Source of the DNA: a virus
Direction: 5' to 3' (one strand)
DNA: 64,000 nt
IMG/VR virus record: IMGVR_UViG_3300045988_183796
Both the position numbers and the translations under genes were made by a program. The notes below the pieces were generated by a model that was given only the letters and a program-made list of their open reading frames with translations, had not been told where the DNA came from and did no database searches. Below, piece after piece: positions 46,674 through 61,245 of this stretch. Position 1 is the stretch's first letter. Each line of letters opens with the position of its first letter.

Positions 46674-47216
46674 ATGCGTACAAACAAGACGGCAAGCCAT
46701 ATTTACTATGAGCTTGACCACGATGTGCAGGAATATGCGAAACGGCTTTTAGCCAAAAAAATTCTGCACGCGGCACAGCAGAATAATGCCGCTCCGTTAT
46801 CTGATAAAACGGCAAAGAAGACTGCTGAGACGGCAGTATTTCTGACCGAACGCCTCGCGCTTTTGTATGAGCTGAATTCTGGATTCCGAGGCATCCGATT
46901 CAGCACTTTCGGAGAACAACCTGCTGTTTACACTACCATGGTCCAGCACAATGCTCCGCTGTACGATGAGCTGATGCTTGGACGGGCCTATAACCTTGCC
47001 AACTACCTTACTGCTGATAATGAGGATATCAAAGAATCTGCTTTGATGAAGCACAAGGTTTTGGCAGCAATTTATAGTGCCGCTGCATACATGAAAGGGC
47101 AGACTCCGGAGCAGGGAAAAATCTCGATTCAGAACCAGCTGTTTGTGTCTACGGCTGTTGAGCTGTTTGATGGTCTTTTGAGTGCAGCGGAAGAGAAAAA
47201 AGAACGGCAGCGATAA
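46674..47216 (+). CDS. Hypothetical protein
   Basis: Starts 5 nt after the helicase stop. Confidence 0.5.
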   Translation: MRTNKTASHIYYELDHDVQEYAKRLLAKKILHAAQQNNAAPLSDKTAKKTAETAVFLTERLALLYELNSGFRGIRFSTFGEQPAVYTTMVQHNAPLYDELMLGRAYNLANYLTADNEDIKESALMKHKVLAAIYSAAAYMKGQTPEQGKISIQNQLFVSTAVELFDGLLSAAEEKKERQR

Positions 47217-47251: not shown

Positions 47252-47704
47252 ATGATTCGAGTTAAGAAAGAGAACCACCGTAGTTGGTTCATGAGCAACT
47301 ATTATCCTTGCGAATTTGTGATGAATGGGATTCGCTACAAGAACGCTGAAGCAGCGTTTCAGAGTCACAAGGTCCCACTGGAAGAGCGCAGACAGTTTGC
47401 GGACATGCCACCGGCTTCTGCCAAGCGCTTTGGCCGCAATGTAGCTATCCCCGCAAACTGGGGTGAGGCTCGGGACGACGTGATGCGCCGCGTGGTGATG
47501 GCCAAGTTCGAGCAGAATGAGGACCTCAAACAGCGCCTCCTCGAAACGGGTACGCAGCCTATTGAGGAAGACACGACCAGCTGGCATGACAATTACTGGG
47601 GCAACTGCCACTGCCCGAAATGCCAGAACATCCCAGGTCAAAACCGGCTTGGGATTATTCTGATGGAAACGAGGGACAAGCTAAAAAAACAAACGAGTAA
47701 ATAA
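47252..47704 (+). CDS. NADAR (YbiA/DUF1768) family ADP-ribosyl N-glycosidase
   Basis: SNYYPCEF, YKNAEAAFQSHK, WHDNYWGNC and GQNRLGIILMETR match NADAR signatures. Confidence 0.75.
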   Translation: MIRVKKENHRSWFMSNYYPCEFVMNGIRYKNAEAAFQSHKVPLEERRQFADMPPASAKRFGRNVAIPANWGEARDDVMRRVVMAKFEQNEDLKQRLLETGTQPIEEDTTSWHDNYWGNCHCPKCQNIPGQNRLGIILMETRDKLKKQTSK

Positions 47705-47735
47705 TATTTGCGAGTCATTTCCTTTTTTAAGACAA

Positions 47736-47776
47736 AAGGCTGCCGCCCATCACGGGTAGCAGCCTTCTTTTTTTGT
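47736..47776. terminator. Bidirectional intrinsic terminator
   Basis: aaggctgccgcccatcacgggtagcagcctt with flanking A- and T-runs. Confidence 0.7.
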
Positions 47777-48229
47777 TTAGTGGGTGTCGTGGCACACATG
47801 CTCGAAATCGACGAGCAGCTCATTTGCTGCCTTTTGCACACATGCTATGGCCGGTTCATCCTTGACTTTTTCAGGTAAAAGGATAAGGCACGGACGGTTA
47901 ATATCAGTTGAGCTGCTATAGTGGCAGGAGAGCAACTCTTCTCCAAATTCGTGATTAAGGGCGGAGGCAAGACATTTACCGAGCAAAGCACAATCCTCAT
48001 CTTTCGCCAAAAGCCTATCCGCCTCATCGTAGTTAATGCGGCCGTTATCGAGACATATACGGTCAAGAAATGCACGAACAGAAGCAGATGCGCTCATGGC
48101 ATCTATAGTCTGACGATGATTCTCAAGAAAAATGCAAAATATCGGCTTTTCGATTTCATCCAAGTAAAAGCCAAGGCCGGTAATACGGGTATTGGTATCG
48201 GTTTGTGTCATAGGAAACACCTCATCCAT
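47777..48229 (-). CDS. Hypothetical protein
   Basis: Coding-like. No motif I recognise. Confidence 0.45.
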   Translation of the reverse strand: MDEVFPMTQTDTNTRITGLGFYLDEIEKPIFCIFLENHRQTIDAMSASASVRAFLDRICLDNGRINYDEADRLLAKDEDCALLGKCLASALNHEFGEELLSCHYSSSTDINRPCLILLPEKVKDEPAIACVQKAANELLVDFEHVCHDTH

Positions 48230-48265
48230 TATGGCAGCGAATCACCTTGCCGCATTCAGAACAAC

Positions 48266-50152
48266 TCACTGAACAACTTCGCCAAGGTCATTTGCGTATT
48301 TCGGGTCACACATCATGAAATAGTTGACGGGGCCGTACTCCAGACCGAGCTCCTGCGCGTATGCCTTGATGACTTCCAGAACGTCCTCTTTCTTGAGATT
48401 ATACTTGGAATGCAGACGGGCAAACTCTTTGTCAGAGACAGAAACGCAAGAGCAATTTTCTGCATCGGTTTCTTTGCTGCCCAGCATCCCGTCAAAGATG
48501 TCCTGCCCTGCACAGAGAATCGTCTCATTGTTCATCGCATAGGCGATAACGGAAGCCTTACAGTCAAAGTCGCTGTTTTCCACAAGGAAATCCTCAGGGC
48601 GGCCGTGACGTTCAACAACGTTTTCATAGATGTCCCGGAGTTCGATAGGAGCAGAAGGAGCGGTCAGAGCTGCTTTATGAAGGCGCATGAATTCCACAAA
48701 CTTTTCATTCGAGAGGGTATCGGTATAAAAGCCGATGCCGGAAACGCGAACCTTCACTTCGCTGGCAAAGTAATCGTCAATTTTGGAGACGATTTTCTGC
48801 TGAACCCGCTTGTACGCTTCCTGAACATTGGAAGCCGTGTAAAATACCGGGAACTTCATGATGTCGATTCCCTCCGGCAGACTCGCGTCATAGGCCGCAT
48901 CAATGCCGCCTCGCAGCGCCGGAACCGCGTCATGAAGCTCTTTCACAGAAGAAATGTATCCGGTAATGTACAGCTCATCGTTTTTGCTGTAATGCCCGAT
49001 AAGTCCCACATAGAGGGTCTGCATCAGCATCCGCTTGAAGCTGAACCAACATAGACGAATGGGTAGAATGACATTAGCAGCCGTACCTTCCGCACGATAG
49101 GTGCCGGGGGCAGAGACCTTTTCCAGCAGAATCTGGTCGTTCTTGTCACCGTATTTTTCCTTGAAAAGAGCTTGAAGAATTTCAGTGGACGAAAGAGGAG
49201 TGGACATTGGAATCGTTTCATTCAGAAAAGAGAGGAATGCATCCACATTGTCTTTCTGCCATGCGTCATTAGACATGCTTGCACGCTGCATAGAGAGCTT
49301 GTCTTTCCTATCATCGGGCAGGGGCTCATACCCACAGGCGATACGAAGTTCGTTCTCCGTGACAGCATCCGTTGCACTTGCAATTTTTTTGATGGTGTTC
49401 TCGGTCGGCTGAGCTTTTGCGTTGCCATTCACGAGGCTGCTGATATACCCACGAGTCAGCCCCGCTTGAAACGCAAACTTACCCTGTGTGCGGGTTCCGA
49501 TGGCTTTTTTGACCAGCGATGCCAGCCTTTGAAAGTCGGGCTCTTTGGGAAAGGTGGCCTCCGCATCCTTATTGCTGTTCTTTTCAAGTACCGACTTGTC
49601 CCAACCGGTGACAAGAGAATACCCAATATCCTTCAAGGATTGATAGGCAACCCCGTTCTGGTCAAGAGCCGGGGAGTATGTACCGCTGTTATCTTCCAGC
49701 TGCTCTACTGCCTCACGCACCATCCTTGCTTCGTTCATCAGGATGACGTCCGGGGCTTCAAGCCGGGCAAGACTCTTGTACCGATTATTGAGGCGCTCGA
49801 CTCGTGCGGCCAATGCAGTGATGTTGGCAACTTGGTCTTCCGTTGCATGGGCAGAGATATCTGCACCAAGTTCAAAATGGTTTAGTGCAGGAATATCCAC
49901 GCCTTTGCTCTTGGCGAATTCCACAATGGCTTCCGCGCCATAGAAACGCTTCTCATGGGCTGCGACAACTTTCGTTATCGTGTCGGCCGAGTTGTCCAGC
50001 TCAAGCACTTCACCTTTTCCGGCATCCTCGACATAACACCTGGTGTTGGTGAGAAAGCCTTTCAAAAAATCAGCATCCACATCCAGCTTCTTAGCGATGC
50101 CGGGCAGCTGCTTATAGAAAATCACGCGCGTGGCGAGGTTAACAGAAATCAT
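48266..50152 (-). CDS. Large hypothetical protein with an internal XRE-like HTH
   Basis: GLTRGYISSLVNG resembles a Cro/C1 HTH. 628 aa. Confidence 0.5.
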   Translation of the reverse strand: MISVNLATRVIFYKQLPGIAKKLDVDADFLKGFLTNTRCYVEDAGKGEVLELDNSADTITKVVAAHEKRFYGAEAIVEFAKSKGVDIPALNHFELGADISAHATEDQVANITALAARVERLNNRYKSLARLEAPDVILMNEARMVREAVEQLEDNSGTYSPALDQNGVAYQSLKDIGYSLVTGWDKSVLEKNSNKDAEATFPKEPDFQRLASLVKKAIGTRTQGKFAFQAGLTRGYISSLVNGNAKAQPTENTIKKIASATDAVTENELRIACGYEPLPDDRKDKLSMQRASMSNDAWQKDNVDAFLSFLNETIPMSTPLSSTEILQALFKEKYGDKNDQILLEKVSAPGTYRAEGTAANVILPIRLCWFSFKRMLMQTLYVGLIGHYSKNDELYITGYISSVKELHDAVPALRGGIDAAYDASLPEGIDIMKFPVFYTASNVQEAYKRVQQKIVSKIDDYFASEVKVRVSGIGFYTDTLSNEKFVEFMRLHKAALTAPSAPIELRDIYENVVERHGRPEDFLVENSDFDCKASVIAYAMNNETILCAGQDIFDGMLGSKETDAENCSCVSVSDKEFARLHSKYNLKKEDVLEVIKAYAQELGLEYGPVNYFMMCDPKYANDLGEVVQ

Positions 50153-50389
50153 GGTGTACTCCTTTCAAATATGTCATTAGCTGTACAATGCTGTCATCTT
50201 CTGTAATTATAATAGCACATCCCGCACCAAAAAGCAAGCATGAATTTACAAAAAATGACAAGAAAATACACAAGATGACATATTTGGGCAAAGCAGTTGA
50301 TTTCCGAGTCTTTGCTACCCCGTGATGGAACATGCCCTGTGCGTCTTGTCTATGCCACAGTTTTGCCACGATTTTGCCATGATTTTGCC

Positions 50390-50418
50390 TTGTGCATCCG
50401 TGCGAATTGGATATGATA
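50390..50418 (+). promoter_or_regulatory. Regulon promoter preceded by three GATTTTGCC direct repeats
   Basis: TTGTGC-atccGTGCGAATtgga-TATGAT. Repeats at about 50360-50390. Confidence 0.5.
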
Positions 50419-50441
50419 GGAAATATAAGATAAATAAGTGT

Positions 50442-50523
50442 AGCCGCAGAGATTTCGATTTCTGCGGCTCATTTCTTTTGTGGTCCCCATGCGGATGAAA
50501 ATGTCTGCGTGGGGATTTTTTAT
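50442..50523 (+). terminator. Two tandem leader hairpins with T-runs between the promoter and the methyltransferase gene
   Basis: agccgcagagatttcgatttctgcggct followed by catttctttt, then tccccatgcggatgaaaatgtctgcgtgggga followed by tttttt. Confidence 0.5.
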
Positions 50524-50537
50524 TTGGAGATATAGAC

Positions 50538-51632
50538 ATGGCAAAGAATGAGAATCTGCACAAGGCAAAGGATGCCAAGAACGACGAGTTCTATACGCTG
50601 TTGAGCAGTATATCCGAAGAACTCAGACACTACAAGCAGCATTTCGCTGCAAAAATTGTATTCTGCAACTGCGATGACCCGACATGGTCTGCTTTCTGGC
50701 GGTATTTCCACCTGAACTTTGCAGAACTTGGCTTAAAGAAGCTGATTTCCACGCACTATGACCGTACAGAACCCACCTACAAGATGGAGTATGAGGGCGG
50801 AGACGACAATGATGTGGAGGTCGGTGTGAAGACCCCGCTGGAAGGCAATGGTGATTTCCGCAGTCAAGAATGCCTTAATTTGCTGGATGAGTGCGATATC
50901 GTGGTAACCAACCCGCCCTTCAGCCTTTTTAGAGAATTCGTCGGGACGTTGATGGAACACGATAAGAAGTTCATTATTTGGGGCAACAACAATGCCATTA
51001 CATACAAAGAGTTCTTTCCACTTTTGAAAGAAAACAAGGTGTGGCTTGGTTATACAGCGAATAAGACGTGTACATTTAGAGTTGCCGAAGGCTATCGCTT
51101 CGACGAAAAACTTACTGCACAATTCAATGACGGGCACAAGTATGGGAAAGTGCCCGCCATTTCTATTTTTACCAACCTCGACATCCAGAAGCGCCACGAA
51201 AAGCTGATTCTTTGGCAGAGATACTATGACGATAACGGGAATCCGTTGCCGGATGCGGAGGAGAGATACCCCCACTACGATAATTACGATGCCATCAATG
51301 TAGACAGGGTTGCTGATATTCCGGTGGATTATCGAGACGTAATGGGTGTGCCGATTACGTTCTTGGATAAGTATAATCCGAAAGAATTTGAAATTTTAGG
51401 CTACACGGGCGGTTTGGGGTGGAATAACCAAAACAATATAAAAACCACCAAAGAGTATTTGGAATGCAAACAGCACAACCCAGACGGGAGTATTACAAGT
51501 GGGGGCAAGGTAAATACTGGCGCGGCATTGTGCTTTAGTGAAATTCCTGCACAAAGATACTATTCGGCATCAAATTGCGACGGATATCTACTCAGAACAT
51601 ACGGACGAATTCTTATTTGCAAGACGAAATGA
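50538..51632 (+). CDS. N6-adenine DNA methyltransferase (orphan; NPPF motif IV)
   Basis: VVTNPPFSLF catalytic motif. N-terminal DEFYT element, as in EcoRI-methylase-like phage/plasmid methyltransferases. Confidence 0.75.
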   Translation: MAKNENLHKAKDAKNDEFYTLLSSISEELRHYKQHFAAKIVFCNCDDPTWSAFWRYFHLNFAELGLKKLISTHYDRTEPTYKMEYEGGDDNDVEVGVKTPLEGNGDFRSQECLNLLDECDIVVTNPPFSLFREFVGTLMEHDKKFIIWGNNNAITYKEFFPLLKENKVWLGYTANKTCTFRVAEGYRFDEKLTAQFNDGHKYGKVPAISIFTNLDIQKRHEKLILWQRYYDDNGNPLPDAEERYPHYDNYDAINVDRVADIPVDYRDVMGVPITFLDKYNPKEFEILGYTGGLGWNNQNNIKTTKEYLECKQHNPDGSITSGGKVNTGAALCFSEIPAQRYYSASNCDGYLLRTYGRILICKTK

Positions 51633-51646
51633 ATGGTGGAATTGGA

Positions 51647-52456
51647 ATGGATATAAAATGGGAAATCGCCTATTATTTAATTGAAGCGAAAAAAGCTGTC
51701 GATTCTTTATGGTATATATCAAACCATGTCGGCGAATTATATGATGTCAGGCAATTATGCAACGATAGACGAAGTCAGTATTACATTAACACCTGTGCCG
51801 TCTTGGATAAAACTGTGTGTAATGGTAAAGGAAAGAAAAAGGAATTAACGCAAAGCGACAATGTTATTGCACACATCTATTACGAAAGAGATAAGCACTA
51901 TGCTCACAAAGATAGTGATTATAGACAAAACTATCCGTGGACAAATTTGGAGCAAGAAGCGTTTGCATTACAAGAGGAATTGCGCCACATTTCAAAAAAA
52001 TGTAAGGATTATCTTCCACAAGTGCTTACACTCGACTTTGTATGTTATGACAGCGTCCAATATCGATATATCAATAAAATTGGCAAAAGTGATGAAGAAA
52101 AAATAAAGAATGAAAAGTATCCTTTTTACAATAAGCCGTTTATAGTAAATGGAAAGACAATTAAAAAGAAACCTATATACGATATTGAAACCATAAAAAG
52201 CATCCCTACTGATAAGCATAATGAATATTGCGTTATTATAGAAAGTGGCTTGACATTTGAAGAAGATTTGCAAAATAGGCAAGATGCCTTAATTAAATTA
52301 AACGTCCTATGTGGTGGAAGTCTTTGGTATGCAAGAAACGAAACCATGTGGAATGAATGTCTCAGGTTACGAGAATTGGGAATATTTGATGCTTTTGGGA
52401 AAATAAATCGTGAAAGAATTAAAGAGGAGATAAAGAAAGGAAATAAAATCCTATGA
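51647..52456 (+). CDS. Hypothetical protein encoded on an AT-rich insert
   Basis: GC drops visibly (about 32-35%) between about 51650 and 52450. Start is 51629 or 51647. Confidence 0.45.
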   Translation: MDIKWEIAYYLIEAKKAVDSLWYISNHVGELYDVRQLCNDRRSQYYINTCAVLDKTVCNGKGKKKELTQSDNVIAHIYYERDKHYAHKDSDYRQNYPWTNLEQEAFALQEELRHISKKCKDYLPQVLTLDFVCYDSVQYRYINKIGKSDEEKIKNEKYPFYNKPFIVNGKTIKKKPIYDIETIKSIPTDKHNEYCVIIESGLTFEEDLQNRQDALIKLNVLCGGSLWYARNETMWNECLRLRELGIFDAFGKINRERIKEEIKKGNKIL

Positions 52457-53589
52457 AAATTACAGAAACGAAAATCAAGGTATTCGACCTTGTCGAGAAT
52501 TACAAGGACAACGGTGATGGCGGTGTCTTTGGCTACAATGACCGTCTTACGATTCGCCCGTCCTTCCAGCGTGAATTTATATATGGGGAGAAGCAGCGTA
52601 CCGCTGTTATTGATTCCGTAATGAACGGATTCCCTTTGAACGTTATGTACTGGTCCAAGACAGGAGATGACACCTACGAGGTTCTTGATGGACAACAACG
52701 TACTATCTCTATTGCTCAGTACATCAACAAGGATTTTCCTGTCAAAGTCAACGGCAATGATAAGTTCTTCCAGAACCTGACCAACGAAGAAAAGCAGGCA
52801 ATTCTGGACTACGAGCTGACGGTTTATGTCTGCGAAGGCACCGAGGCTGAGAAGCTTGAATGGTTTAAGCGCATCAATATCGCTGGTGAGGTTTTGACTC
52901 CGCAGGAACTTCTGAACGCTACATACACAGGACCGTGGCTGGCCGATGCAAAGAACTACTTCTCAAAGCGCAACTGCGTGGCTGTTAAGATGGCAGATGG
53001 CTATTTGAAAGGCAACCCGATTCGACAGGAACTGCTGGAAAAGGCACTGATTTGGATTGCGGACCGGGATGGTCTGGAATCCGGGCAGATGTACATGGCG
53101 ATTCACCAGCATGACGAGGACGCCAATGACCTCTGGCTTTACTTCCAGTCGGTAATCAACTGGGCCAAAATGCTGTTCCCGTCTAAGCGGAAGGGGATTA
53201 CGGATGCACAGGCATGGGGACTGCTCTACAACAAGTACCATTCGAAGCAGTACAACAGCAACGCTCTGGAAGCAGACATCAAGAAGCTCGTGATGGACGA
53301 TGATGTGACGAAGAAAGCAGGCATCGTTCCGTACATCCTGTCTGACCGTACATGGCGTGACGAAAAGCATCTGTCTCTGCGTGCGTTTACTGAGTCTCAG
53401 AAGCTCCGTGCCTATGAGCGGCAGGGACATAAGTGTCCGCTGTGCGTTGCGAACGGTATCAACACCGAGTATGCCTATGAGGATATGGAAGGTGACCACA
53501 TCATTCCTTGGAGCAAGGGTGGGCATACCACGGATGACAATTTGCAGATGCTGTGCAAGAAGTGTAATTCGGCAAAGTCGGATATGTGA
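52453..53589 (+). CDS. DUF262 (ParB/Srx-like, DGQQR) plus C-terminal HNH endonuclease: type IV restriction / defence-like nuclease
   Basis: VLDGQQRT motif. C-terminal HKCPLC...GDHIIPWSKGG...NLQMLCKKCN HNH motif. Confidence 0.75.
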   Translation: MKITETKIKVFDLVENYKDNGDGGVFGYNDRLTIRPSFQREFIYGEKQRTAVIDSVMNGFPLNVMYWSKTGDDTYEVLDGQQRTISIAQYINKDFPVKVNGNDKFFQNLTNEEKQAILDYELTVYVCEGTEAEKLEWFKRINIAGEVLTPQELLNATYTGPWLADAKNYFSKRNCVAVKMADGYLKGNPIRQELLEKALIWIADRDGLESGQMYMAIHQHDEDANDLWLYFQSVINWAKMLFPSKRKGITDAQAWGLLYNKYHSKQYNSNALEADIKKLVMDDDVTKKAGIVPYILSDRTWRDEKHLSLRAFTESQKLRAYERQGHKCPLCVANGINTEYAYEDMEGDHIIPWSKGGHTTDDNLQMLCKKCNSAKSDM

Positions 53590-53604
53590 TGGTGGGAGCA
53601 TATC

Positions 53605-54063
53605 ATGAAAAAATATTGCTATTTCATGTTCGGTATGTTCACCGGCACAGACGGAAACAAATACAACATCTGCATCCCGTCGCCGTTTGTCCGAGACTCA
53701 AAAGCTGAAGCTATGAAGGATGAAAATTTTGCTTACCGCTTTTTGACAATCGACTCGGCCGGACCTATGCTGGTCGCTTTTGCAAACGAGCACTTCAAAC
53801 CCATGAACAACGGCAAAATGCAGTTGAAATGCTGGGTGGATAAGGATGTTGCCGGGAACTATACCTTTGAAGAATTCAAGAAAAATGGCGGGTATATTCG
53901 ACAACTGAAGCCGAGTAGCAAGGGAAAATATGTAACTGATGAGTCGGACTTTATTGATGCTGATAAGGCATTTGCCGATGTATTCCCCAATGTGGAGCAA
54001 GGGAAGCTCTACTATGTGGATGATGAGGCTTATTTCATCGGGAATGTGACGAAAATCAAATAA
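53605..54063 (+). CDS. Hypothetical protein
   Basis: RBS GGTGGGAGCATATC. Confidence 0.5.
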   Translation: MKKYCYFMFGMFTGTDGNKYNICIPSPFVRDSKAEAMKDENFAYRFLTIDSAGPMLVAFANEHFKPMNNGKMQLKCWVDKDVAGNYTFEEFKKNGGYIRQLKPSSKGKYVTDESDFIDADKAFADVFPNVEQGKLYYVDDEAYFIGNVTKIK

Positions 54064-54085
54064 TATAAAGCTGGAGGGACCCTTT

Positions 54086-54442
54086 ATGGTAGTTAAAGGA
54101 GAAGCTTGTTTTGTTTCTATGCAGTTGAGCATGAAATCTACTGACACCACGAGCAAAGGAATTATCATGCCAGATTTTCTTTGCTCTAGTGCAGATTTTT
54201 CGCTTCCTTACAATCCAGAGATTATCGACAAATTTGTCTATGACGACAAAATGATTTCTCACATGGTCCACGAATTGTACAGTCTCGTGAAGTGCCTACG
54301 CCCTGATAAATTGGATGACAAAGAAAAATGCCTGGTACTGGATATTGACGTGGATGATGAATTCTATGATTTCTACGATGTATATGTAACTATGAGCAAA
54401 GATACTTGTACCTACAGGGTCGAAGAAGATGATGACTACTGA
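54086..54442 (+). CDS. Acidic small protein, family A paralog 1
   Basis: VHELYSLVKCLRPDKLDDKEKCLVLDIDVDD aligns with paralogs at 54707 and 56697. Start is 54086 or 54122. Confidence 0.5.
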   Translation: MVVKGEACFVSMQLSMKSTDTTSKGIIMPDFLCSSADFSLPYNPEIIDKFVYDDKMISHMVHELYSLVKCLRPDKLDDKEKCLVLDIDVDDEFYDFYDVYVTMSKDTCTYRVEEDDDY

Positions 54443-54630
54443 TATACTGTGCTCTCTCATCGAACGATGTAACGTTCTGAACAGCGCTCATGGCGCTGCT
54501 TGGGCTGACAGGCACCGGAGCTTATCACTAAAACCTTGAAAAAAGAAGTGGAACGCAACAATATAGAAAATTATTAAAAAATATTTTTTTGAGAAATCCG
54601 ACCTAGCCGGATTCCACGCTACTGGACCGA

Positions 54631-54658
54631 TTGACCGTCCTTGCGAACTGCGTAGAAT
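54631..54658 (+). promoter_or_regulatory. Regulon promoter (variant TGCGAAC)
   Basis: TTGACC-gtccTTGCGAACtgcg-TAGAAT. Confidence 0.5.
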
Positions 54659-54706
54659 TAAAGGTGTAAGAAGAAACCCGTAACACACACAAAGGGGAAT
54701 ACCAAC

Positions 54707-55027
54707 ATGTATACTTGCACCTTAAAATTCGAAGCTACCGCGTTCCGCGAGGATGATGACAACGAGCTCGAAAGCATCTCTGCTTCCATCAGCGTCCCCG
54801 TAAAAGGTGATGATGAAACGGTTGAAGAAACGCTGAGTAATGAGAAGCTGATTGTCCGCACTGTTGTAGCGTTGTACGAAATCGTTAGCTACCTGCGCCC
54901 CAACTGGCTGGACAACGAGGCTACCAGCCTGACGCTGGATATTTCCATCGATGGCAGTGAAGTTCAGTCGCGTGGCGGCCTTGTTACCATGAAACCGGAA
55001 GGCTTTATCTTTAACCTGGATGATTAA
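54707..55027 (+). CDS. Acidic small protein, family A paralog 2
   Basis: RBS AAAGGGGAATACCAAC. About 40% identity to 56697-57017. Confidence 0.55.
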   Translation: MYTCTLKFEATAFREDDDNELESISASISVPVKGDDETVEETLSNEKLIVRTVVALYEIVSYLRPNWLDNEATSLTLDISIDGSEVQSRGGLVTMKPEGFIFNLDD

Positions 55028-55040
55028 GTAAAGTTGATTG

Positions 55041-55078
55041 GGAGTCTTACCTGCAAAAGCGGGCAAGACTCCTTTTTT
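55041..55078 (+). terminator. Intrinsic terminator
   Basis: ggagtcttacctgcaaaagcgggcaagactcc followed by a T-run. Confidence 0.65.
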
Positions 55079-55094
55079 ATAAGCAGGTGAACAT

Positions 55095-55982
55095 ATGAAC
55101 ATTGCGTTTTATGACGGTATACTTTTGCAAGTGAACTTGCATAACAGCAAAGCCACCGTTCTTTCGAAACACAAAATTGGAACCGACACCATAGATTTCT
55201 ACAACTACTTCACAAAACACCGCCCGTCTCCTGAAGAGCCGCTTTTGGAGTTGTCGAACTTTCCGGCAAATGAAGCCATCAAAATCATTTCCGGGCAGCC
55301 CCTTGTCAATCAATTCTTTTCGGATTACATCGATACTAGCCAGGAAAACAATCAGGCCACTGCAAAAGAAGCTTTGGCCTATACTCACAATCTTGTCCAG
55401 AATGTTTTTTCTGATATAGATGCTGCTTTGGCGATGCATTCTGGTGTTAATGCTAAGGGATTCGAAGGTAACCAGATGCTTTTCGGAGCTGACCAGTTCA
55501 CGATGGTCTTTGCTCTGTTGGGCAATCGAATTGTTCAGGTCTACACGGTAAAAGACCTGCGTGAATATCTCCTGCTTGATTTATACTACGCCAATTTTGT
55601 GCCGGATTTCTCAAAAAAGATTGCTATTTGCCCTTGCTGCGGAAAGACTTTCCGTTTGAGTCAGCGGAACAAGGTATACTGCAGCAAGGCTTGCAAAGAT
55701 AAAAGCATTCGGGCAAACAACAAGAAAGACCCATACTATTCAAAATACCGATACCTGCAGCAATACAACAACCGGCAACTCAACAAGCAGCGCAGGCGTA
55801 TGGCAGATTCATCGCTACAAGCGCAGAAGCTGCGAGATGCCTATACCACCTGGAACAAATGGGCACGCTCTGAATACAAGCAGGTGAGTGGCATCTCAGA
55901 CCACACGCAGCGGGTGAATGTTGAAGAGTTCGATGGGCGCTTGAAAGAGCGGTGGAAGGCTCTAACATGGGACCTGAATTAA
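55095..55982 (+). CDS. Hypothetical protein with a C-terminal zinc ribbon and a basic tail
   Basis: CPCCGKTF...YCSKACKDK motif. RBS AAGCAGGTGAAC. Confidence 0.55.
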   Translation: MNIAFYDGILLQVNLHNSKATVLSKHKIGTDTIDFYNYFTKHRPSPEEPLLELSNFPANEAIKIISGQPLVNQFFSDYIDTSQENNQATAKEALAYTHNLVQNVFSDIDAALAMHSGVNAKGFEGNQMLFGADQFTMVFALLGNRIVQVYTVKDLREYLLLDLYYANFVPDFSKKIAICPCCGKTFRLSQRNKVYCSKACKDKSIRANNKKDPYYSKYRYLQQYNNRQLNKQRRRMADSSLQAQKLRDAYTTWNKWARSEYKQVSGISDHTQRVNVEEFDGRLKERWKALTWDLN

Positions 55983-56003
55983 AGTGCTCAGCATGAAGAA
56001 CGA

Positions 56004-56040
56004 CCTACCTGCCATAAACAGGTGGGGCTTTTTCTTTTTG
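56004..56040 (+). terminator. Intrinsic terminator
   Basis: acctgccataaacaggtgggg followed by cttttt. Confidence 0.55.
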
Positions 56041-56105
56041 TGTTGACAGCAGGCTAAAGAGGAGAAAACCGCCCCAATGGAATGCTCATTCCAGAACGTC
56101 AGAAA

Positions 56106-56133
56106 TTGACTCATTATGCGATTTGCCTAGAAT
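56106..56133 (+). promoter_or_regulatory. Regulon promoter (variant ATGCGATT)
   Basis: TTGACT-cattATGCGATTtgcc-TAGAAT. Confidence 0.45.
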
Positions 56134-56158
56134 GAAAAGAAATGAGGCAGAAAGTGAG

Positions 56159-56368
56159 ATGCGTAATATGTTTGCAATGTGCCGAGACGGTTCAGCCGTT
56201 CATGTCTTCGGAAATACCATCAGCGTCAGTGGCCGGGGCATGAGCGAAACCTACGTCCTCTGCGGGAACATGCTGACCGGTCCGCACGGGTTCCGGTCGA
56301 TGAACTGCAGAAGTATCGATGAGGCATTTTGCCTGGTGTGCGGCGTACATGGCGGTAAGAGCTGGTGA
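56159..56368 (+). CDS. Small protein, family B paralog 4
   Basis: ...YVLCGNMLTGPHGFRSMNCRSIDEAFCLVCGVHGG matches family B. Start is uncertain (56159, 56168 or 56177). Confidence 0.4.
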   Translation: MRNMFAMCRDGSAVHVFGNTISVSGRGMSETYVLCGNMLTGPHGFRSMNCRSIDEAFCLVCGVHGGKSW

Positions 56369-56384
56369 AGCAAAATTCTTGATT

Positions 56385-56460
56385 TGTGTTGTTTTCGGCC
56401 CCTCTAAAGGTCTTGACTTGTGAGGCTTTTGACCTTCCAAAAGTCTTGATTTGTGTTGAA
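56385..56460. repeat. Three direct repeats (G)TCTTGAYTTGTG upstream of a promoter
   Basis: ttcttgatttgtgtt, ggtcttgacttgtgagg and agtcttgatttgtgttg. Confidence 0.5.
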
Positions 56461-56482
56461 CGCCAAGGCAAATACAAGAAGT

Positions 56483-56510
56483 TTGACACCTTATGCGACT
56501 TGCATACAAT
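56483..56510 (+). promoter_or_regulatory. Regulon promoter with a consensus -35
   Basis: TTGACA-ccttATGCGACTtgca-TACAAT. Confidence 0.55.
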
Positions 56511-56696
56511 AATACTTATGCAGTACACCAGAGCAAACAAACGGATATATACGCTTGCACAGTATAGCAAGTACGGCAAAATAAAAGCTCGAAACAGATT
56601 GAAAAGTATAAGACCGTATAATAGAGTCAAGCAGGTTGAAAGGTAAAAGATGGTTTCTAGGACTGCATAAATATAATCTAAAAGGAGATATTCCCA

Positions 56697-57017
56697 ATGA
56701 ACACCAGTATCTTGAAACTTGAAGCCAGCGTGATTCGCCCCAAAGATTTTGACGAACTCGACGGTCTTGCTGCTTCCATCAGCTTCCCCGTCGAATACGA
56801 TGATGAGGCAATCGGTGAGGCTCTGGCCGACCAGGACCTGATGGCCTATGTCGTCGGTGAGCTGCATGACCTCGTTGTCCGTATGCGCCCCGAATGGCAG
56901 GATAACGAAGATACCAGCCTGACTATCAAGGCATTCCTGGACGAAGCCGAGTGCCAGACGCTCAAGGGCCTTGTCGCAATGAAAGAGGACAGCTACACCT
57001 TCGTCATTGAGGGCTAA
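56697..57017 (+). CDS. Acidic small protein, family A paralog 3
   Basis: RBS AAAAGGAGATATTCCCA. Aligns with 54707-55027. Confidence 0.55.
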   Translation: MNTSILKLEASVIRPKDFDELDGLAASISFPVEYDDEAIGEALADQDLMAYVVGELHDLVVRMRPEWQDNEDTSLTIKAFLDEAECQTLKGLVAMKEDSYTFVIEG

Positions 57018-57350
57018 TAGCTAAAAGAACAAGTGAAAACCCTGCTCGCAGTAAAATGCGGGCGGGGTCTTTTTTTGTTTGACAAGGTGTGCGAGATGGC
57101 TATGATGATTATTGTATCAAAGATACCACTTACCTTCATTTTTAACATTCCGCTTTTGCAAGGACAGCCTCATTCCGAGGTTGTCCTTTTTCTTTTGCGT
57201 AACTCTCCACGGAAACACTTGTCCCCGTGTTTAACATAAATCCGCAAGCTGCTCTAAATTTTGGAACAGCTTAGTCAATTCAAATCGTACGAAAGTACGA
57301 AAACACTACGCAAACATTCTGCGTAGACTGTAAAAAAAGGAGTAATAATT

Positions 57351-57848
57351 ATGAAGTTCGAAAATCTTTACATCCGTGCCACCCGTCATGGCAGCCAGGA
57401 ACCCACCGAAATCAACCTTGCGGATGCCCTGAAGCTTCTCGGCATCCTTGACGCAGCCAACATAGCTCACTTTGACCTTGTGGTCAAGGACGAGAACGGC
57501 TGCGAAATCGCCGCCCAGGTCGATGGCGAAGGCGTCCTTTCGGACGGAATCAACATCGAAGGCGTGAACGAAGCTGGTGAACCTACCGGTTTTGCCCACG
57601 TCGCTCTCCCCAGTGAGGATTGCCCTCACATTGTCACCGAAATCCTGTGAGGCGACGGTGACACCGAAGACCTTGACCATCCGGTTCTCGTGCGCGTCCC
57701 TGACTGCGTGCGTGCCGAAGGGGACAAGAGTCTCCGCAAGGTGTACTTCGACAAGGAAGTTGCGAGTGCAACTGGCTTCAACACGGAGGAAGACCAGTCC
57801 AAGCTCAACGCATCCACCGTGGATGAGTACGCCCTCATGAAGAAGTGA
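57351..57848 (+). pseudogene. Acidic protein ORF interrupted by an in-frame TGA at 57648-57650 (recoding/readthrough candidate or nonsense pseudogene)
   Basis: RBS AAAAAAGGAGTAATAATT before ATG 57351. After the TGA the same frame stays open for 65 more codons (GDGDTEDLDHPVLVRVPDCVRAEGDKSLRKVYFDKEVASATGFNTEEDQSKLNASTVDEYALMKK), with similar acidic composition and codon usage. Confidence 0.45.
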
Positions 57849-57959
57849 TTCTTCATTTTTTCCAAACGTTGCCTTTAAGCTTTGTTTCTAGCTGCAGTAT
57901 GAATCAAGGTTAAAATGGCCTGGCTTGAAAGTCGTTCACCTTTTGGTGAGCGGCTTTTT

Positions 57960-58030
57960 CTTTTTGCTCATTTGCGTAGCTGCGCTTCTTTGTTGTTGGA
58001 ACCGTAGGTGCCAGGATGCGTAGCTGCCAG
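57960..58030. repeat. CGTAG-core repeat cluster (GCGTAGCTGC x2 and ACCGTAGGTGCC)
   Basis: ttgcgtagctgcg, aaccgtaggtgcc and atgcgtagctgcc. Same motif family as the clusters flanking the IscB locus. Confidence 0.55.
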
Positions 58031-58036
58031 TATGAC

Positions 58037-58064
58037 TTGACCTGATGTGCGAATCTTATACAAT
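58037..58064 (+). promoter_or_regulatory. Regulon promoter driving a short transcript
   Basis: TTGACC-tgatGTGCGAATctta-TACAAT. A second regulon promoter lies 90 nt downstream. Confidence 0.5.
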
Positions 58065-58142
58065 CAGATTTGTACGAGAGATACTATTCACACAATAGGA
58101 TTCACACGAAGCTGCTCGGGAGCCGTATGGCTGCTGGGTGGC

Positions 58143-58170
58143 TTTTTCTTTTGTGCGAGTTGCGTACAAT
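58143..58170 (+). promoter_or_regulatory. Regulon promoter (weak -35) for the lipoprotein / macro / MazG operon
   Basis: ttttGTGCGAGTtgcg-TACAAT. Confidence 0.45.
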
Positions 58171-58194
58171 ATAAATCAAACGGAGGAAATTACC

Positions 58195-58602
58195 ATGAAA
58201 AAATTTATTGAAACTGCTTTGGCATTATGCTGCCTGGCTATGCCTTTGGCTGGCTGTGAGGACGCAATCAGCACTGTGACAAGTACTACGATGTCTGAAC
58301 TCGAAGATATCCCGGGTCAGATATTGTCTACACCAGAAAGTGCTGAGACAGTACCGGAATACAATTACATTCATTTTCGCTACGACAACATTTGGACCGT
58401 ATCCGCTCTCGTAAGCTACGAAATCGTGGACAACGGGCAAAACATCAAATTTGAAATCAGTGATAGCCGTTACCGAGACAAGGTTTTCTATACCAGCATG
58501 TCGAATGTAGAGCTCGTATACCGAGACAATAACGTTGATTATGGCACAGACTATGCTATTTATCCAGGGAATGCTTCGAAATTTGGAAAGGGGAGTAAGT
58601 GA
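58195..58602 (+). CDS. Lipoprotein
   Basis: Signal peptide plus lipobox LAMPLAGCE. RBS AACGGAGGAAATTACC. Confidence 0.55.
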   Translation: MKKFIETALALCCLAMPLAGCEDAISTVTSTTMSELEDIPGQILSTPESAETVPEYNYIHFRYDNIWTVSALVSYEIVDNGQNIKFEISDSRYRDKVFYTSMSNVELVYRDNNVDYGTDYAIYPGNASKFGKGSK

Positions 58603-58603
58603 G

Positions 58604-59080
58604 ATGAGCGTGAAATTCATTGACGGCGATATCCTTTCCAAACGTTCTGAAGACGAACTGACCTACATCTGCCAGCAGGTAAATTGCCGTGGCGTGATGG
58701 GAGCCGGGCTCGCTCTGCAAATCCGAAACAAGTGGCCGGTCGTGTATCGGCGTTATCTGGGGCTCTGCTACGGCAGCGACGGAAACAAGCTCGGAATGTA
58801 TCAGGAGGTTTTGGTTGGACCGAAGCTGTATATTGTGAATTTGTTCGGTCAGGATGGCTATGGTCGGAGCGAAAGACAGACGAATTACGCTGCACTCGCA
58901 GCTGCGCTGTTCTCGTTTTTTAAGGACTGTGCCCAAAAGAATCGGGACGCAACCATCCGGCTGCCATATGGTTTAGGCTGCGGCCTTGCTGGGGGTGACT
59001 GGAACATGGTTCTCACCATCATCAGCGATGCGGCTAAAGCCTCAAACCTGAATGTCGAGATTTGGAAACTTCAGAAATAA
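58604..59080 (+). CDS. Macro-domain protein (ADP-ribose binding/hydrolase)
   Basis: ICQQVNCRGVMGAGLALQI, NLFGQDGYG and LPYGLGCGLAGGDW are macro-domain signatures. RBS AAAGGGGAGTAAGTGAG. Confidence 0.75.
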   Translation: MSVKFIDGDILSKRSEDELTYICQQVNCRGVMGAGLALQIRNKWPVVYRRYLGLCYGSDGNKLGMYQEVLVGPKLYIVNLFGQDGYGRSERQTNYAALAAALFSFFKDCAQKNRDATIRLPYGLGCGLAGGDWNMVLTIISDAAKASNLNVEIWKLQK

Positions 59081-59090
59081 TAGCAAAAAA

Positions 59091-59126
59091 GCCCTTACCG
59101 AAAACGGTAGGGGTCTTTCTTTTTTG
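59091..59126 (+). terminator. Intrinsic terminator
   Basis: gcccttaccgaaaacggtaggggtc followed by a T-run. Confidence 0.7.
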
Positions 59127-59220
59127 TAGGGACATAAATATGTACAGATTGCAAACAAATAGCACCTGCTGTTGCGGGAAAAGCACGATAGTGAGATAAT
59201 ATTCTTTGAAGGAGCCGAGA

Positions 59221-59640
59221 ATGAACGAGAAACCGCAAACACCTGTCGTGAGCTGCGCATGCCGCTGCGGCGCTGTAAACTGGGAGGAGCATAAGCCTAT
59301 GATGTACCAGAAATTAGTTCGGGACAACATCCCGGCAATTATCGAAAAGAGCGGTGAGACCTGTGTAACCCGTAAGCTGTCCGACAAGGAGTATGAAGAC
59401 GCTCTGGTAGAAAAATTACAGGAAGAAGTAAAGGAGCTGTTGGAAGCGTACACCTCCAAGGAACGGAGCGTTCTGGACTGTGCTGAGGAAATGGCAGATG
59501 TGATGGAGGTCCTGTACGCTATGGGTAAGACCTGCGCTGTTTCCAAGCGGGAAATAGAACAGGTTCGAAGCCAGAAGGCAGCAGAGAAGGGAACTTTTTC
59601 CAAAAAAGTCTTCTTGGTATCAACGGAAAAGCACACCTAA
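59221..59640 (+). CDS. MazG-like nucleoside triphosphate pyrophosphohydrolase
   Basis: KLVRDNIPAII, EELLEA and EEMADVMEVL are MazG/PRA-PH-like signatures. RBS GAAGGAGCCGAGA. Confidence 0.7.
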   Translation: MNEKPQTPVVSCACRCGAVNWEEHKPMMYQKLVRDNIPAIIEKSGETCVTRKLSDKEYEDALVEKLQEEVKELLEAYTSKERSVLDCAEEMADVMEVLYAMGKTCAVSKREIEQVRSQKAAEKGTFSKKVFLVSTEKHT

Positions 59641-59653
59641 GAGGAGGCACACA

Positions 59654-60073
59654 GTGAATCAAGATGAAGCGTTGCTGATTCGGAAACTGATTTTCGCAAA
59701 AAACAGCCAAGACATTACGCACTTTTCTCGCCTCATGGACGAAATTGCACAAGCATTTGAACAGCAAGGTGATAGAGAAAGCGCTCGTGCTATTCTTCAG
59801 ACTCTTCATAACGGTTACGTCCAGTCGTACTTTGAACTAGGTAGGCAGGTACAACCAGAAGGATGCCCGTATGTAACCTACGAGCCTGCATATACAATCG
59901 AATACAGAGATATGGCGCTACGAATGGCACGGGAATCCACGCGACCCATGCGTGTGCGACATATTTTAGAGTATGTAGAGTGCGGCAATGTTGTAGCCAA
60001 AGATGTTCTGGAATATGACAGAAACACGGAAAAGTGGGTTCGGATTGAAAATGAATGTGTCGCGTTGACATAA
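59654..60073 (+). CDS. Hypothetical protein
   Basis: GTG start after GAGGAGGCACACA. Confidence 0.5.
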   Translation: MNQDEALLIRKLIFAKNSQDITHFSRLMDEIAQAFEQQGDRESARAILQTLHNGYVQSYFELGRQVQPEGCPYVTYEPAYTIEYRDMALRMARESTRPMRVRHILEYVECGNVVAKDVLEYDRNTEKWVRIENECVALT

Positions 60074-60093
60074 AATAGCAAGGAAGTGATATA

Positions 60094-61101
60094 GTGACCA
60101 ATGTAGAATTGAAAGCAATTTTCCAACGCGAAGAATACGATTTTTTACGTACCAACAAACATCTGGGAGATAACATCCTGTTTTTGACCGTCGGCGGCAG
60201 CCATGCTTACGGAACCAACGTTGAAGGCTCTGACATCGATATCCGTGGCGTGGCAGGCTCGCCTGAAATTTTGGGATTCAATCATTTTGAGCAGGCAATC
60301 GATAACCAAACGGATACCGTCATCTACGCGGTCAACAAATTCGTCAGTTTGCTTGTGCAGGGCAACCCCAACATTATCGAACTTCTTGGCAATGACCCGG
60401 AGTTGTACGTTAATATGACACCGGAAGGCCAAATGCTGCTTGACAATCGGACACTGTTCTTGACGCGGCGTATTGCCTACAGCTACGGCGGCTTTGCAAA
60501 CGACCAGCTCAGACGCCTGCAGATGGGCCTTCTTCGGAATGGGACCTCGCCGGAAGCATTTAAGAACAAATTTGAGAAGAGGAGCCTGGAACGGTCGATT
60601 GCCGGTTGGGGTAAGGATGACATTTTTGAAATCTCCATCAGCGAAGATGCGGATGAAGAAGGCAAACATCCGCTCCTGATTTCCGGCAATTTGAACGATT
60701 ATCCGGTCATCTCTCTCAAGTCCCTGCTAAAGAGTCTGACTACGACCATCGACCAGTATGAGCAGCCGCAGCATCCGAAAGCACAAAAAGATGCTGCCCA
60801 CATCAACAAACACGCGATGCACATTGTGCGGTTGTACTACACGGCGTTCGATATTCTGGAAAAAGGCGAGATTATCACTCACCGAGACAAGGAACGCGAG
60901 GAATTGTTGGCGATTCGCAACGGCAAGTACCTGCGTGAAGACGGGTCGTACGCACCCGAATTCTTTGAGTTTGTTGATGCGCTTGAAAAGAGATTTCAGG
61001 ATGACGTGAGGAAAACCTCTCTTCCTGCTAAGCCTGACTTTGGAAAAATTGAGGAGCTTCTGGTGGAAATCAACAAGTCATATTTGCGGCGTATCGTGTA
61101 A
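60094..61101 (+). CDS. Nucleotidyltransferase-domain protein (pol-beta superfamily)
   Basis: LFLTVGGSHAYGTNVEGSDIDIRGV matches the GS...D.D nucleotidyltransferase motif. Confidence 0.6.
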   Translation: MTNVELKAIFQREEYDFLRTNKHLGDNILFLTVGGSHAYGTNVEGSDIDIRGVAGSPEILGFNHFEQAIDNQTDTVIYAVNKFVSLLVQGNPNIIELLGNDPELYVNMTPEGQMLLDNRTLFLTRRIAYSYGGFANDQLRRLQMGLLRNGTSPEAFKNKFEKRSLERSIAGWGKDDIFEISISEDADEEGKHPLLISGNLNDYPVISLKSLLKSLTTTIDQYEQPQHPKAQKDAAHINKHAMHIVRLYYTAFDILEKGEIITHRDKEREELLAIRNGKYLREDGSYAPEFFEFVDALEKRFQDDVRKTSLPAKPDFGKIEELLVEINKSYLRRIV

Positions 61102-61217: not shown

Positions 61218-61245
61218 TTGCACATCTGTGCGAATCAGATATAAT
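61218..61245 (+). promoter_or_regulatory. Regulon promoter
   Basis: TTGCAC-atctGTGCGAATcaga-TATAAT. Confidence 0.55.

Follow-up and report, generated by a model that had tools for sequence, protein, structure and literature searches.

A probable hotspot of defence and counter-defence cargo on a Hodor-like megaplasmid of the human gut

What is a run of genes for ADP-ribose-removing enzymes, a pyrophosphohydrolase, a nucleotidyltransferase and a DNA methyltransferase doing on a large mobile element of the human gut? The question is raised by positions 47252-61101 of a 64,000-nt stretch of DNA (the window) filed as virus record IMGVR_UViG_3300045988_183796. A first, sequence-only reading had taken this segment for a concentrated anti-defence repertoire resembling the leading region of conjugative plasmids. 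We consider it probable that the segment is instead a variable hotspot of defence and counter-defence cargo on a megaplasmid similar to the recently described Hodor elements, with independent cassettes that would be swapped into and out of a slot between two conserved flanks.

These megaplasmids count among the large mobile elements with the highest prevalence in human-gut metagenomes, and their sole description is silent on how they cope with host immunity; the words ‘defense’, ‘restriction’, ‘methyltransferase’, ‘promoter’ and ‘GATC’ occur zero times in that preprint (PMC12934698). The hotspot combines swappable restriction cassettes, a HEPN-like gene of type I restriction-modification (R-M) and BREX loci, and orphan ADP-ribose-removing enzymes. 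Such orphan enzymes have so far been validated only in phages, and their predicted presence here would extend the idea of orphan-antitoxin counter-defence to conjugative plasmids. The locus also cautions that a cluster of such domains need not mean a ‘leading region’, its clearest anti-restriction signal being the total avoidance of GATC and the avoidance of many palindromes. Its more unusual aspects are the combination of a promoter box with leader terminators and the total avoidance of GATC.

A variable segment between conserved flanks

The genes of the segment and of its flanks are listed below; the ‘family promoter’ is the shared promoter described in a later section.

44474-46669, + strand: superfamily 2 helicase of 731 aa, with ResIII and Helicase_C over its N-terminal half and a C-terminal ~380 aa without a match
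46674-47216, + strand: 180-aa protein directly 5' of the NADAR gene, no family match
47252-47704, + strand: orphan NADAR-domain protein of 150 aa, last gene of its operon
47777-48211, - strand: acidic 144-aa protein (isoelectric point (pI) 4.7), no family match
48266-50152, - strand: 628-aa protein with an HTH_3 (helix-turn-helix, HTH) domain, in the conserved left flank of the variable segment
50538-51632, + strand: M.EcoRI-family N6-adenine DNA methyltransferase of 364 aa (Pfam, expect value (E) 1e-115)
51629-52456, + strand: protein X, 275 aa, helical, with an invariant R87-x5-H93
52453-53589, + strand: DUF262 (GmrSD_N) and HNH nuclease of 378 aa (PADLOC REase_II PDLC03418)
53605-54063, + strand: 152-aa protein, no family match
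54086-54442, + strand: acidic 118-aa protein (pI 4.23), distant paralogue of both 106-aa proteins
54707-55027, + strand: acidic 106-aa protein (pI 4.08), own family promoter at 54631-54658
55095-55982, + strand: basic 295-aa protein with a Cys4 zinc ribbon and a weak PHROG match to HNH-type families over residues 174-238 only
56697-57017, + strand: acidic 106-aa protein (pI 4.05), own family promoter at 56483-56510
57351-57650, + strand: acidic 99-aa protein (pI 4.30), promoter-like site at 57079-57106 and leader terminator at 57160-57188
58195-58602, + strand: predicted lipoprotein of 135 aa with a signal peptide and LAGC lipobox, not DarT-like
58604-59080, + strand: stand-alone macro domain of 158 aa, SCO6735/BT1257 type
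59221-59640, + strand: MazG/PRA-PH-type all-alpha nucleoside triphosphate (NTP) pyrophosphohydrolase of 139 aa
59654-60073, + strand: 139-aa protein, no family match
60094-61101, + strand: RlaP-family pol-beta nucleotidyltransferase of 335 aa
61330 to beyond the window end, + strand: UvrD-like helicase of 906 aa, the conserved right flank

The segment was compared across 35 IMG/VR loci, four of them found through the macro-domain protein and 31 through NADAR (relatives are cited by locus number). An AcrVA2-like operon, the helicase-NADAR operon and the HTH gene are conserved on its left, and the UvrD-like helicase is conserved on its right; the sequence-only reading had counted helicases among the genes of the segment itself, but none lies within 47252-61101, which two helicases (44474-46669 and 61330 onward) flank. 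Between the flanks, the R-M operon is present in L052, L057, L058, L067, L072 and L073 and absent from many sister contigs, and in many copies the HTH gene is followed directly by an acidic 106-aa gene and then by the lipoprotein, macro, RlaP and helicase genes. RlaP is missing from L077 and L078, and MazG together with the 139-aa gene is missing from L022, L024 and L025 and present in L023, MazG and RlaP being gained and lost independently of each other and of the macro gene. L060 and L075 carry no cargo between the HTH gene and the helicase.

The R-M operon itself varies in parts: across sister plasmids its nuclease is 91-97% identical and its methyltransferase just 63-88%, and X is swapped for unrelated genes that encode proteins of 266 and 338 aa. 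A stable nuclease beside a diverged methyltransferase and a replaced X suggests cassette exchange. The segment thus behaves as a diversity hotspot for conflict genes would.

What looks like another variable slot lies ~6-8 kb past the window end. There, L009-L011 (16934-19173) encode a 386-aa protein of metallo-beta-lactamase fold and a radical-SAM-like protein 3' of the UvrD-like helicase, and L012 has a Mor-like regulator and an AAA ATPase in place of this pair. The 386-aa protein has a ‘faint’ match to the Anti-Pycsar protein Apyc1.

Cargo genes and their predicted roles

Profile searches bore out the four domain calls of the sequence-only reading, namely NADAR, macro, MazG-like and pol-beta nucleotidyltransferase, and the coordinates match the gene calls of the source contig. 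The methyltransferase that it had called an orphan proved to head an operon with the HEPN-like gene X and the DUF262-HNH nuclease. Overlaps of 4 bp join the methyltransferase gene to X and X to the nuclease gene, and the methyltransferase is translationally coupled to both. The nuclease matches the PADLOC type II restriction endonuclease model PDLC03418 end to end (E 1.9e-131), and its homologues (46-52% identity, full length) directly adjoin EcoRI-family methyltransferases on plasmids of many phyla, including those of Aeromonas, Mammaliicoccus, Ligilactobacillus, Sulfitobacter, Ruania and Variovorax, which makes methyltransferase and nuclease a conserved pair. As in a type II R-M system, the methyltransferase stands next to a nuclease and the pairing is kept in unrelated replicons. 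The 152-aa protein accompanies the nuclease, with counterparts of 78-79% identity in L023 and L024. To judge from these homologies, the methyltransferase-X-nuclease operon is a predicted defence or addiction module rather than an anti-defence one: the methylase would mark plasmid and host, the DUF262-HNH nuclease would cut unmarked DNA, and the embedded HEPN-like protein would be a candidate back-up effector.

Protein X has no match in Pfam, PDB sequences, PHROG or BFVD folds. An alignment of its 63 homologues gives an almost all-helical AlphaFold model (pLDDT, the model's confidence score, 91), and in the alignment R87-D88-K89-x-x-A92-H93 is invariant or nearly so. The motif Rx4-6H is the signature of HEPN RNases. 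Some distant homologues are encoded between hsdM and hsdS in the type I system of a Clostridia metagenome-assembled genome, others between pglX and pglZ in a BREX locus; with homologues inside type I R-M, BREX and defence-island loci, X appears to be an accessory gene embedded in defence systems. An EcoRI-like nuclease was ruled out for X, there being no PDB-sequence, Pfam or BFVD fold match, and the role of cognate restriction endonuclease of the methyltransferase was rejected on two grounds: homologues of X occur within type I R-M and BREX loci, and the protein is all-helical and bears an Rx5H motif. PrrC (of the prr locus) and RloC are restriction-linked back-up effectors embedded in R-M operons, and by analogy we infer that X is a putative HEPN-like back-up effector of this kind.

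In the defence-island-like locus L111 (JGI 3300029305, 939-9296), X homologues are translationally coupled 3' of a macro gene and of an ADP-ribosylglycohydrolase gene, with a MazG-like gene and a Schlafen-like helicase close by. Proteins of the X family may pair generally with modification-erasing or modification-writing enzymes.

The rest of the cargo, together with the flanking NADAR gene, includes what would be a phage-type repair and erasure set: NADAR and a macro domain, both orphans, a MazG-like pyrophosphohydrolase and RlaP. By homology, these enzymes would remove ADP-ribose marks or mend damage to nucleic acids and nucleotides inflicted by host toxins of DarT and related types. The NADAR assignment is firm (Pfam PF08719, E 2.7e-25; TIGR02464, 78.7 bits against a cutoff of 73.7; PHROG 1017, E 3e-35), with a further weak match to Pfam Phage_30_3. 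DarT models (DUF4433 in Pfam; PADLOC) match neither the 180-aa protein 5' of NADAR nor the 135-aa protein 5' of the macro gene, so that both enzymes are orphans; a DarT-like toxin at either place was ruled out on the same searches and, for the macro gene, because its 5' neighbour encodes a predicted lipoprotein.

NADAR antitoxins of DarT1 are known (PMC11543638), and gp30.3 of phage T4 (AdfN) is an orphan NADAR that neutralises DarTG1, a proven case of phage counter-defence (PMC11825919). NADAR relatives (35-48% identity) occur on 28 distant viral contigs of IMG/VR, where neither the helicase nor the 180-aa gene adjoins them, a result that also weakened the candidate of a conserved helicase-180aa-NADAR defence system. 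Orphan status, the AdfN precedent and these 28 viral loci with a lone NADAR favour a counter-defence reading, and we regard the protein as a candidate ADP-ribosyl-guanine glycohydrolase of AdfN type. Outside the plasmid lineage, on a 238-kb IMG/VR contig of an unrelated virus (L085, 3191-4066), the two erasers co-occur, a macro homologue lying ~0.5 kb upstream of a NADAR homologue.

The sequence-only reading had paired NADAR and macro as the two enzyme classes that reverse DarT-type ADP-ribosylation of DNA; both are indeed orphans, and NADAR has the AdfN precedent, but the macro protein lacks the catalytic lysine of DarG. By Pfam alone the macro match is sub-threshold (E 0.007). The best profile matches are to DarG macro models (5e-15 and 1.3e-14), alongside PHROG 335 (2e-37), which is annotated ‘phosphatase’, and among PDB macrodomains the protein matches 5e3b (6e-12), 2afc and 2fg1 (~3e-10), the DarG macro domains 5m3i and 5m31 (DarG 1.5e-6) and the ADP-ribose 1''-phosphate phosphatases (6lft, E 6e-6). 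Aligned to 5m3i, the macrodomain of Mycobacterium tuberculosis DarG, it places FGQDGYG opposite the DarG segment FPTKKHW, which we take to hold the catalytic lysine (K80 in DarG, K84 in TARG1). Its GQ(H/D)G and GCGLAGG motifs are those of the SCO6735/BT1257 group, and at 158 aa the protein covers only positions 2-147 of DarG models of 329-338 residues, without the C-terminal DarT-binding domain. The protein is, from sequence, a predicted macro-domain hydrolase that is not assignable as DarG-like; protein- or RNA-linked ADP-ribose and ADP-ribose-1''-phosphate may equally be its substrate.

The MazG-like call is the weakest of the four: the protein passes the PRA-PH model only (24.2 bits, cutoff 21.3) and is sub-threshold for the MazG-like model, and it has the EExxE...ExxD metal-binding motifs (LQEEVKE, EEMADV). 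For the proposal that it acts against nucleotide-based defence signalling we found no basis, and a MazG-like gene also occurs in the defence-island-like locus L111. RlaP matches Pfam PF10127 (E 1.7e-19), named there as an ‘RNA repair pathway’ family, and PHROG 388 over its full length (E 1.2e-50).

The acidic small proteins noted earlier number four and are strongly acidic (pI 4.05-4.30, net charge -13 to -16); three of the four are paralogues. The protein at 56697-57017 has an AlphaFold 2 model (pLDDT 88) with no PDB fold match, and its family has only 51 representatives among 1.84 billion proteins. These proteins are a lineage-restricted family lying between the defence and counter-defence cassettes.

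Could the whole segment be a defence island? On that account NADAR and macro would be antitoxin or immunity parts, or members of multi-gene anti-phage systems (the candidates being helicase-180aa-NADAR and lipoprotein-macro-MazG-nucleotidyltransferase), acting with the R-M/HEPN genes to shield host and plasmid from phages and competing plasmids. In its favour, the R-M/HEPN operon is a predicted defence module; the helicase at 44474-46669 is similar to the motor domains found in restriction enzymes of types IV and I; MazG-like, macro and ADP-ribosylglycohydrolase genes stand beside X homologues in L111; and NADAR matches the candidate defence model PADLOC PDC-M42C (4e-14) and, sub-threshold, the NCBIfam model DS32_2, ‘NADAR family anti-phage protein’, matches that leave room for a defence role of NADAR. 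We nevertheless think this account unlikely: no toxin partner (DarT or another ADP-ribosyltransferase) was detected beside NADAR or macro, the helicase-NADAR linkage is confined to the lineage and is missing from the 28 viral contigs with distant NADAR relatives, and phages commonly encode members of the NADAR, macro and RlaP families (PHROG 1017, 335 and 388).

Expression, restriction sites and mode of entry

The promoters at the head of the cassettes share the consensus TTGnnn-N4-GTGCGAAttGCA-TAcAAT, or, from 29 instances, TTGnnn-a..tGTGCGAattGca-TAcAAT. They are of sigma-A type; within their 16-nt spacer, between -35 and -10, lies a conserved box of ~12 bp. The window holds 11 copies of GTGCGAAT against 2.9 expected, every one on the + strand, and a position-weight-matrix scan of the window gave 14 sites scoring 18 bits or more, each of them intergenic and on the + strand. 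Weaker look-alikes lie at 56106 and 57079. In and around the segment, the main copies are these.

44105-44132, + strand: family promoter TTGTCA-16-TACAAT with the GTGCGAAT box, heading one operon of a 65-aa membrane protein, the helicase, the 180-aa protein and NADAR; leader terminator at 44166-44192
50390-50417, + strand: family promoter of the R-M operon; leader terminator hairpins at 50442-50469 and 50482-50517
58037-58064 and 58143-58170, + strand: tandem family promoters of the lipoprotein-macro-MazG-139aa-RlaP operon; terminator-like hairpin at 58108-58145 between them
61218-61245, + strand: family promoter of the UvrD-like helicase; leader terminator hairpin at 61269-61303, then a T-tract

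The shared promoter of the sequence-only reading is thus real in that it heads many genes of the segment, but it is not specific to anti-defence: it also precedes bactofilin, helicase and pilin genes of the transfer region, driving genes of the type IV secretion system (T4SS). It is kept in a diverged 389-kb relative and absent from unrelated phage loci. Being lineage-wide and present before transfer genes, it is a general promoter of the lineage and not a mark of anti-defence genes.

Six promoter copies (23668, 44105, 50390, 57079, 58037 and 61218; five of the 14 matrix sites plus the look-alike at 57079) have a strong hairpin with a U-tract within the next 30-90 nt, ahead of the first gene; overall, roughly half of the promoters carry a leader terminator. 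The diverged L023 and the T4SS region (L021, 8734) retain this layout, in L023 with different stem sequences. The hairpins come from single-sequence folds, and a covariation alignment of the 61218 leader with L023 was out of register and uninformative; a search of the leaders against Rfam gave no family match. Box and leader terminators together suggest control by attenuation or antitermination. Late promoters of the lambda Q type have a Q-binding element between -35 and -10. Operons controlled by antitermination occur in Gram-positive conjugative elements, as with conAn of pLS20 (PMC8191782) and in Tn916 (PMC11658703).

In the mechanism that we propose, each cassette would be transcribed from the plasmid's standard sigma-A-type promoter with its GTGCGAAttGCA spacer box, and expression would probably be gated plasmid-wide by a factor acting on the box, by antitermination or by both, not by single-stranded leading-region promoters. 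That box and terminators form a single plasmid-wide switch, thrown by a factor loaded on RNA polymerase in the manner of lambda Q or released as a global repressor, is a conjecture by analogy that we rate as unlikely to hold. If it did hold, leaders would be read through and transfer, restriction and counter-defence genes would come on together, for example just after entry, and a very large Gram-positive plasmid would have a route to early expression that, unlike the single-strand promoters of a leading region, does not depend on position.

An imperfect 41-nt inverted repeat rich in ATGACA/TGTCAT, at 50166-50286 between the divergent HTH gene and the R-M promoter, is likely the operator of the HTH protein.

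The window contains no GATC, where ~250 sites would be expected. For CTAG the count is 20, compared with expectations of 246 (base composition) and 64 (a Markov model). Of the 64 six-base palindromes, 18 never occur, although 10-22 copies of each would be expected; GAATTC, at 21 sites for 17 expected, is not avoided. GATC is also missing from 31 of 31 same-lineage NADAR loci and from 12 other related loci (L005, L009, L012, L013, L015-L017, L021-L025 and L049-L079 in all). The exception is L020, with eight sites confined to a 2-kb insert of evidently foreign origin; in ~20-kb loci of unrelated phages (L026, L039, L040 and L044) the count is 17-45. Evasion of restriction on entry appears to be largely passive, a major part being played by this so far unreported avoidance of GATC and of many six-base palindromes.

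What, then, is the carrier? The region has no megablast match among INPHARED phages or PLSDB plasmids, and a scan of 185,579 GTDB species-representative genomes with the RlaP protein found no relative. Exact-protein look-ups returned identical proteins on human-gut metagenome contigs of 204-293 kb; the window corresponds to ~34.3-98.3 kb of the 242,713-bp human-gut contig ERZ1744822 NODE_16, and single window proteins are indexed in 417 (nucleotidyltransferase) to 1,245 (flotillin-like) blocks of an assembly collection. Relatives in IMG/VR include one contig of 389,222 bp. A type IV coupling protein and a VirB4-like ATPase are encoded in the first 12 kb of the window, and a pilin, a surface protein of ~1,900 aa, an M23 hydrolase, a 720-aa RecD-like helicase, SecY/SecE homologues, RecG and RecD2 5' of it. 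The transfer genes span from ~10 kb upstream of the window to ~12 kb inside it, with replication genes further upstream, and in one related contig a Rep_3 initiator adjoins a gene-free stretch of ~2.3 kb. The nearest VirB4 relatives in PLSDB are on Subdoligranulum and Vescimonas plasmids (38% identity). GC content is ~47%, and the + strand carries ~90% of the window genes, only six of about 70 lying on the minus strand. From these sequence features the element is most likely a large (~240-390 kb) conjugative megaplasmid of human-gut Bacillota, of the Hodor G1 type.

Three further genes of the window lie upstream of the segment.

21360-22661: UmuC/ImpB-type Y-family polymerase gene
39760-40359: Mor-family regulator, behind a family promoter (precomputed Pfam on sister contigs)
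41628-42515: AcrVA2-like protein of 295 aa (precomputed Pfam PF26125; PHROG 6160 at 5e-7)

The leading region is the side of the origin of transfer (oriT) away from the relaxase, and anti-defence genes are enriched among the ~30 open reading frames (ORFs) that come first in it (Samuel et al., Nature 2024, PMC11541004); there they can be transcribed from the T-strand, often behind Frpo/ssi hairpins, and UmuC-like genes are reported near anti-defence islands (PMC11541004). If the segment were such an island, dedicated to anti-defence and expressed first on entry against DarTG, CBASS/Pycsar-type signalling and restriction, several of its features would fit: orphan NADAR and macro genes, an AcrVA2-like gene just upstream that is kept in all sister contigs, the ‘faint’ metallo-beta-lactamase/Apyc1-like gene downstream, the UmuC-like gene at 21360-22661, and an orientation of nearly all genes with the transfer genes that is compatible with the T-strand as template. 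The last of these does not discriminate, given the strand bias of the window. The segment moreover lies ~35-50 kb past the T4SS core, on the transfer-gene side, its start being separated from the core's downstream end by about 35 kb and no fewer than 35 genes. This argument from position is inferential: with oriT upstream of the transfer genes, as usual, the segment would enter late. An inverted-repeat scan of 40-64 kb gave no Frpo-like long hairpins, only short terminator stems and one operator-like repeat, and the promoters are double-stranded sigma-A promoters shared with T4SS genes. No ssb, psiB or ardA is in the Pfam lists of the window, where the AcrVA2-like protein, itself outside the segment, is the sole match of a leading-region hallmark type. 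The methyltransferase is not an orphan, and a restriction nuclease and a HEPN-like gene sit mid-region. The resemblance to a leading region on which the sequence-only reading had drawn is therefore unsupported, and we hold an island of that kind to be quite improbable.

Very improbable, lastly, is a macro-MazG-139aa-RlaP module for RNA or nucleotide repair or housekeeping with no specific link to DarT, in which macro would hydrolyse ADP-ribose-1''-phosphate or O-acetyl-ADP-ribose, RlaP would be an RNA-repair nucleotidyltransferase and MazG would clean up non-canonical NTPs: the Pfam name of RlaP, the macro matches to 6lft and the PHROG 335 ‘phosphatase’ and the missing DarG lysine speak for it, but the independent gain and loss of MazG and RlaP relative to macro means that the four genes are no obligate unit, no RNA ligase (RtcB) or kinase/phosphatase partner is nearby, and a swap-prone hotspot beside conflict genes points to a role in conflict.

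Several points weigh against our own reading of a defence and counter-defence hotspot on a Hodor-like plasmid. The identification with Hodor draws on shared features and is an inference, not a direct sequence comparison. Relaxase and oriT were not located with Pfam and NCBIfam (the 413-, 160-, 318- and 121-aa ORFs upstream of the T4SS genes included), and by eye the 160- and 318-aa products have no HD motif; the Hodor relaxase was found only through HHsearch and structure comparison, and relaxase and oriT lie there in the replication/partition/T4SS core (PMC12934698). The DUF262-HNH protein could be a modification-dependent (type IV) enzyme and not the cognate nuclease of the methyltransferase. 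The two NADAR matches to defence models, PDC-M42C and the sub-threshold DS32_2, pull towards defence, and reversal of thymine ADP-ribosylation by the macro protein is doubtful, since it lacks the DarG/TARG1 lysine.

Elsewhere in the window, a HEARO/omega-RNA at 12045-12357 (59 bits, E 2.7e-11) lies directly 5' of an IscB-like RRXRR and HNH protein (12412-13605), an insertion without which sister contig L014 is found. A second HEARO copy at 30881-31141, downstream of the family promoter at 30783 and upstream of a flotillin/SPFH gene (31199-32842), scores higher (91 bits) and has no adjoining IscB. An HDV-like ribozyme at 35573-35642 (Rfam HDV-F-prausnitzii; 60 bits, gathering score 44), just 3' of a VWA-domain gene, stands in a stretch that appears inserted relative to L015. 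Two tandem paralogous genes of ~340-390 aa (24272-25456 and 25572-26636) have duplicated upstream regions (repeats D4 and D10) and no family match.

Comparison with known systems

Like leading-region islands, the locus belongs to a conjugative element and has co-oriented small genes, candidate anti-defence genes, a methyltransferase and a umuC-like gene nearby. Unlike them, it has no plausible oriT near it, lies on the transfer-gene side, has neither Frpo/ssi hairpins nor ssb, psiB or ardA, pairs its methyltransferase with a nuclease, and interleaves defence genes with anti-defence candidates.

Among the cargo, X resembles PrrC and RloC in that its gene sits between modification and restriction genes, in its Rx4-6H motif and in having homologues in type I R-M and BREX loci; it differs from them in having no ATPase domain or sequence similarity, and in sitting in a type II-like pair of M.EcoRI-family methyltransferase and DUF262-HNH nuclease. 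Like AdfN, NADAR is a single-domain protein of ~150 aa that a mobile element encodes without a DarT partner, and it has a weak Phage_30_3 match; unlike AdfN it is carried by a conjugative plasmid, not a phage, and closes an operon with a helicase. The macro protein has the fold both of DarG/TARG1 (5m3i, 5m31, 4j5r) and of SCO6735/BT1257 (5e3b, 2fg1, 2afc); it shares the GCGLAGG loop with the SCO6735 group and is closer to the SCO6735/BT1257 group than to DarG by the E values given above (6e-12 against 1.5e-6).

The promoter units recall antitermination in pLS20 and Tn916, with terminators just 3' of promoters and inside operons of a conjugative element, and lambda Q promoters, with a conserved DNA box between -35 and -10. 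They differ from all three in being many dispersed units rather than one long operon, and no conAn-like or Q-like gene was identified.

The element as a whole is closest in kind to the Hodor conjugative megaplasmids, described in a 2026 preprint from the human gut as replicons of 211-389 kb with Rep_3 and a non-coding oriV of more than 2 kb, diverged VirB4, VirD4 and VirB6, a separate helicase, and a short MOBH-like HD relaxase in the replication/T4SS core; their GC content is 44.6-47.1% (47.1% in group G1), and databases misfile them as viruses (PMC12934698). The present element is like them in size class, in its ~47% GC (as in G1), in a Rep_3 gene with a large non-coding neighbour, in its diverged VirB4 and VirD4 and separate helicase, in its occurrence in viral databases, and in its very high prevalence in human-gut metagenomes.

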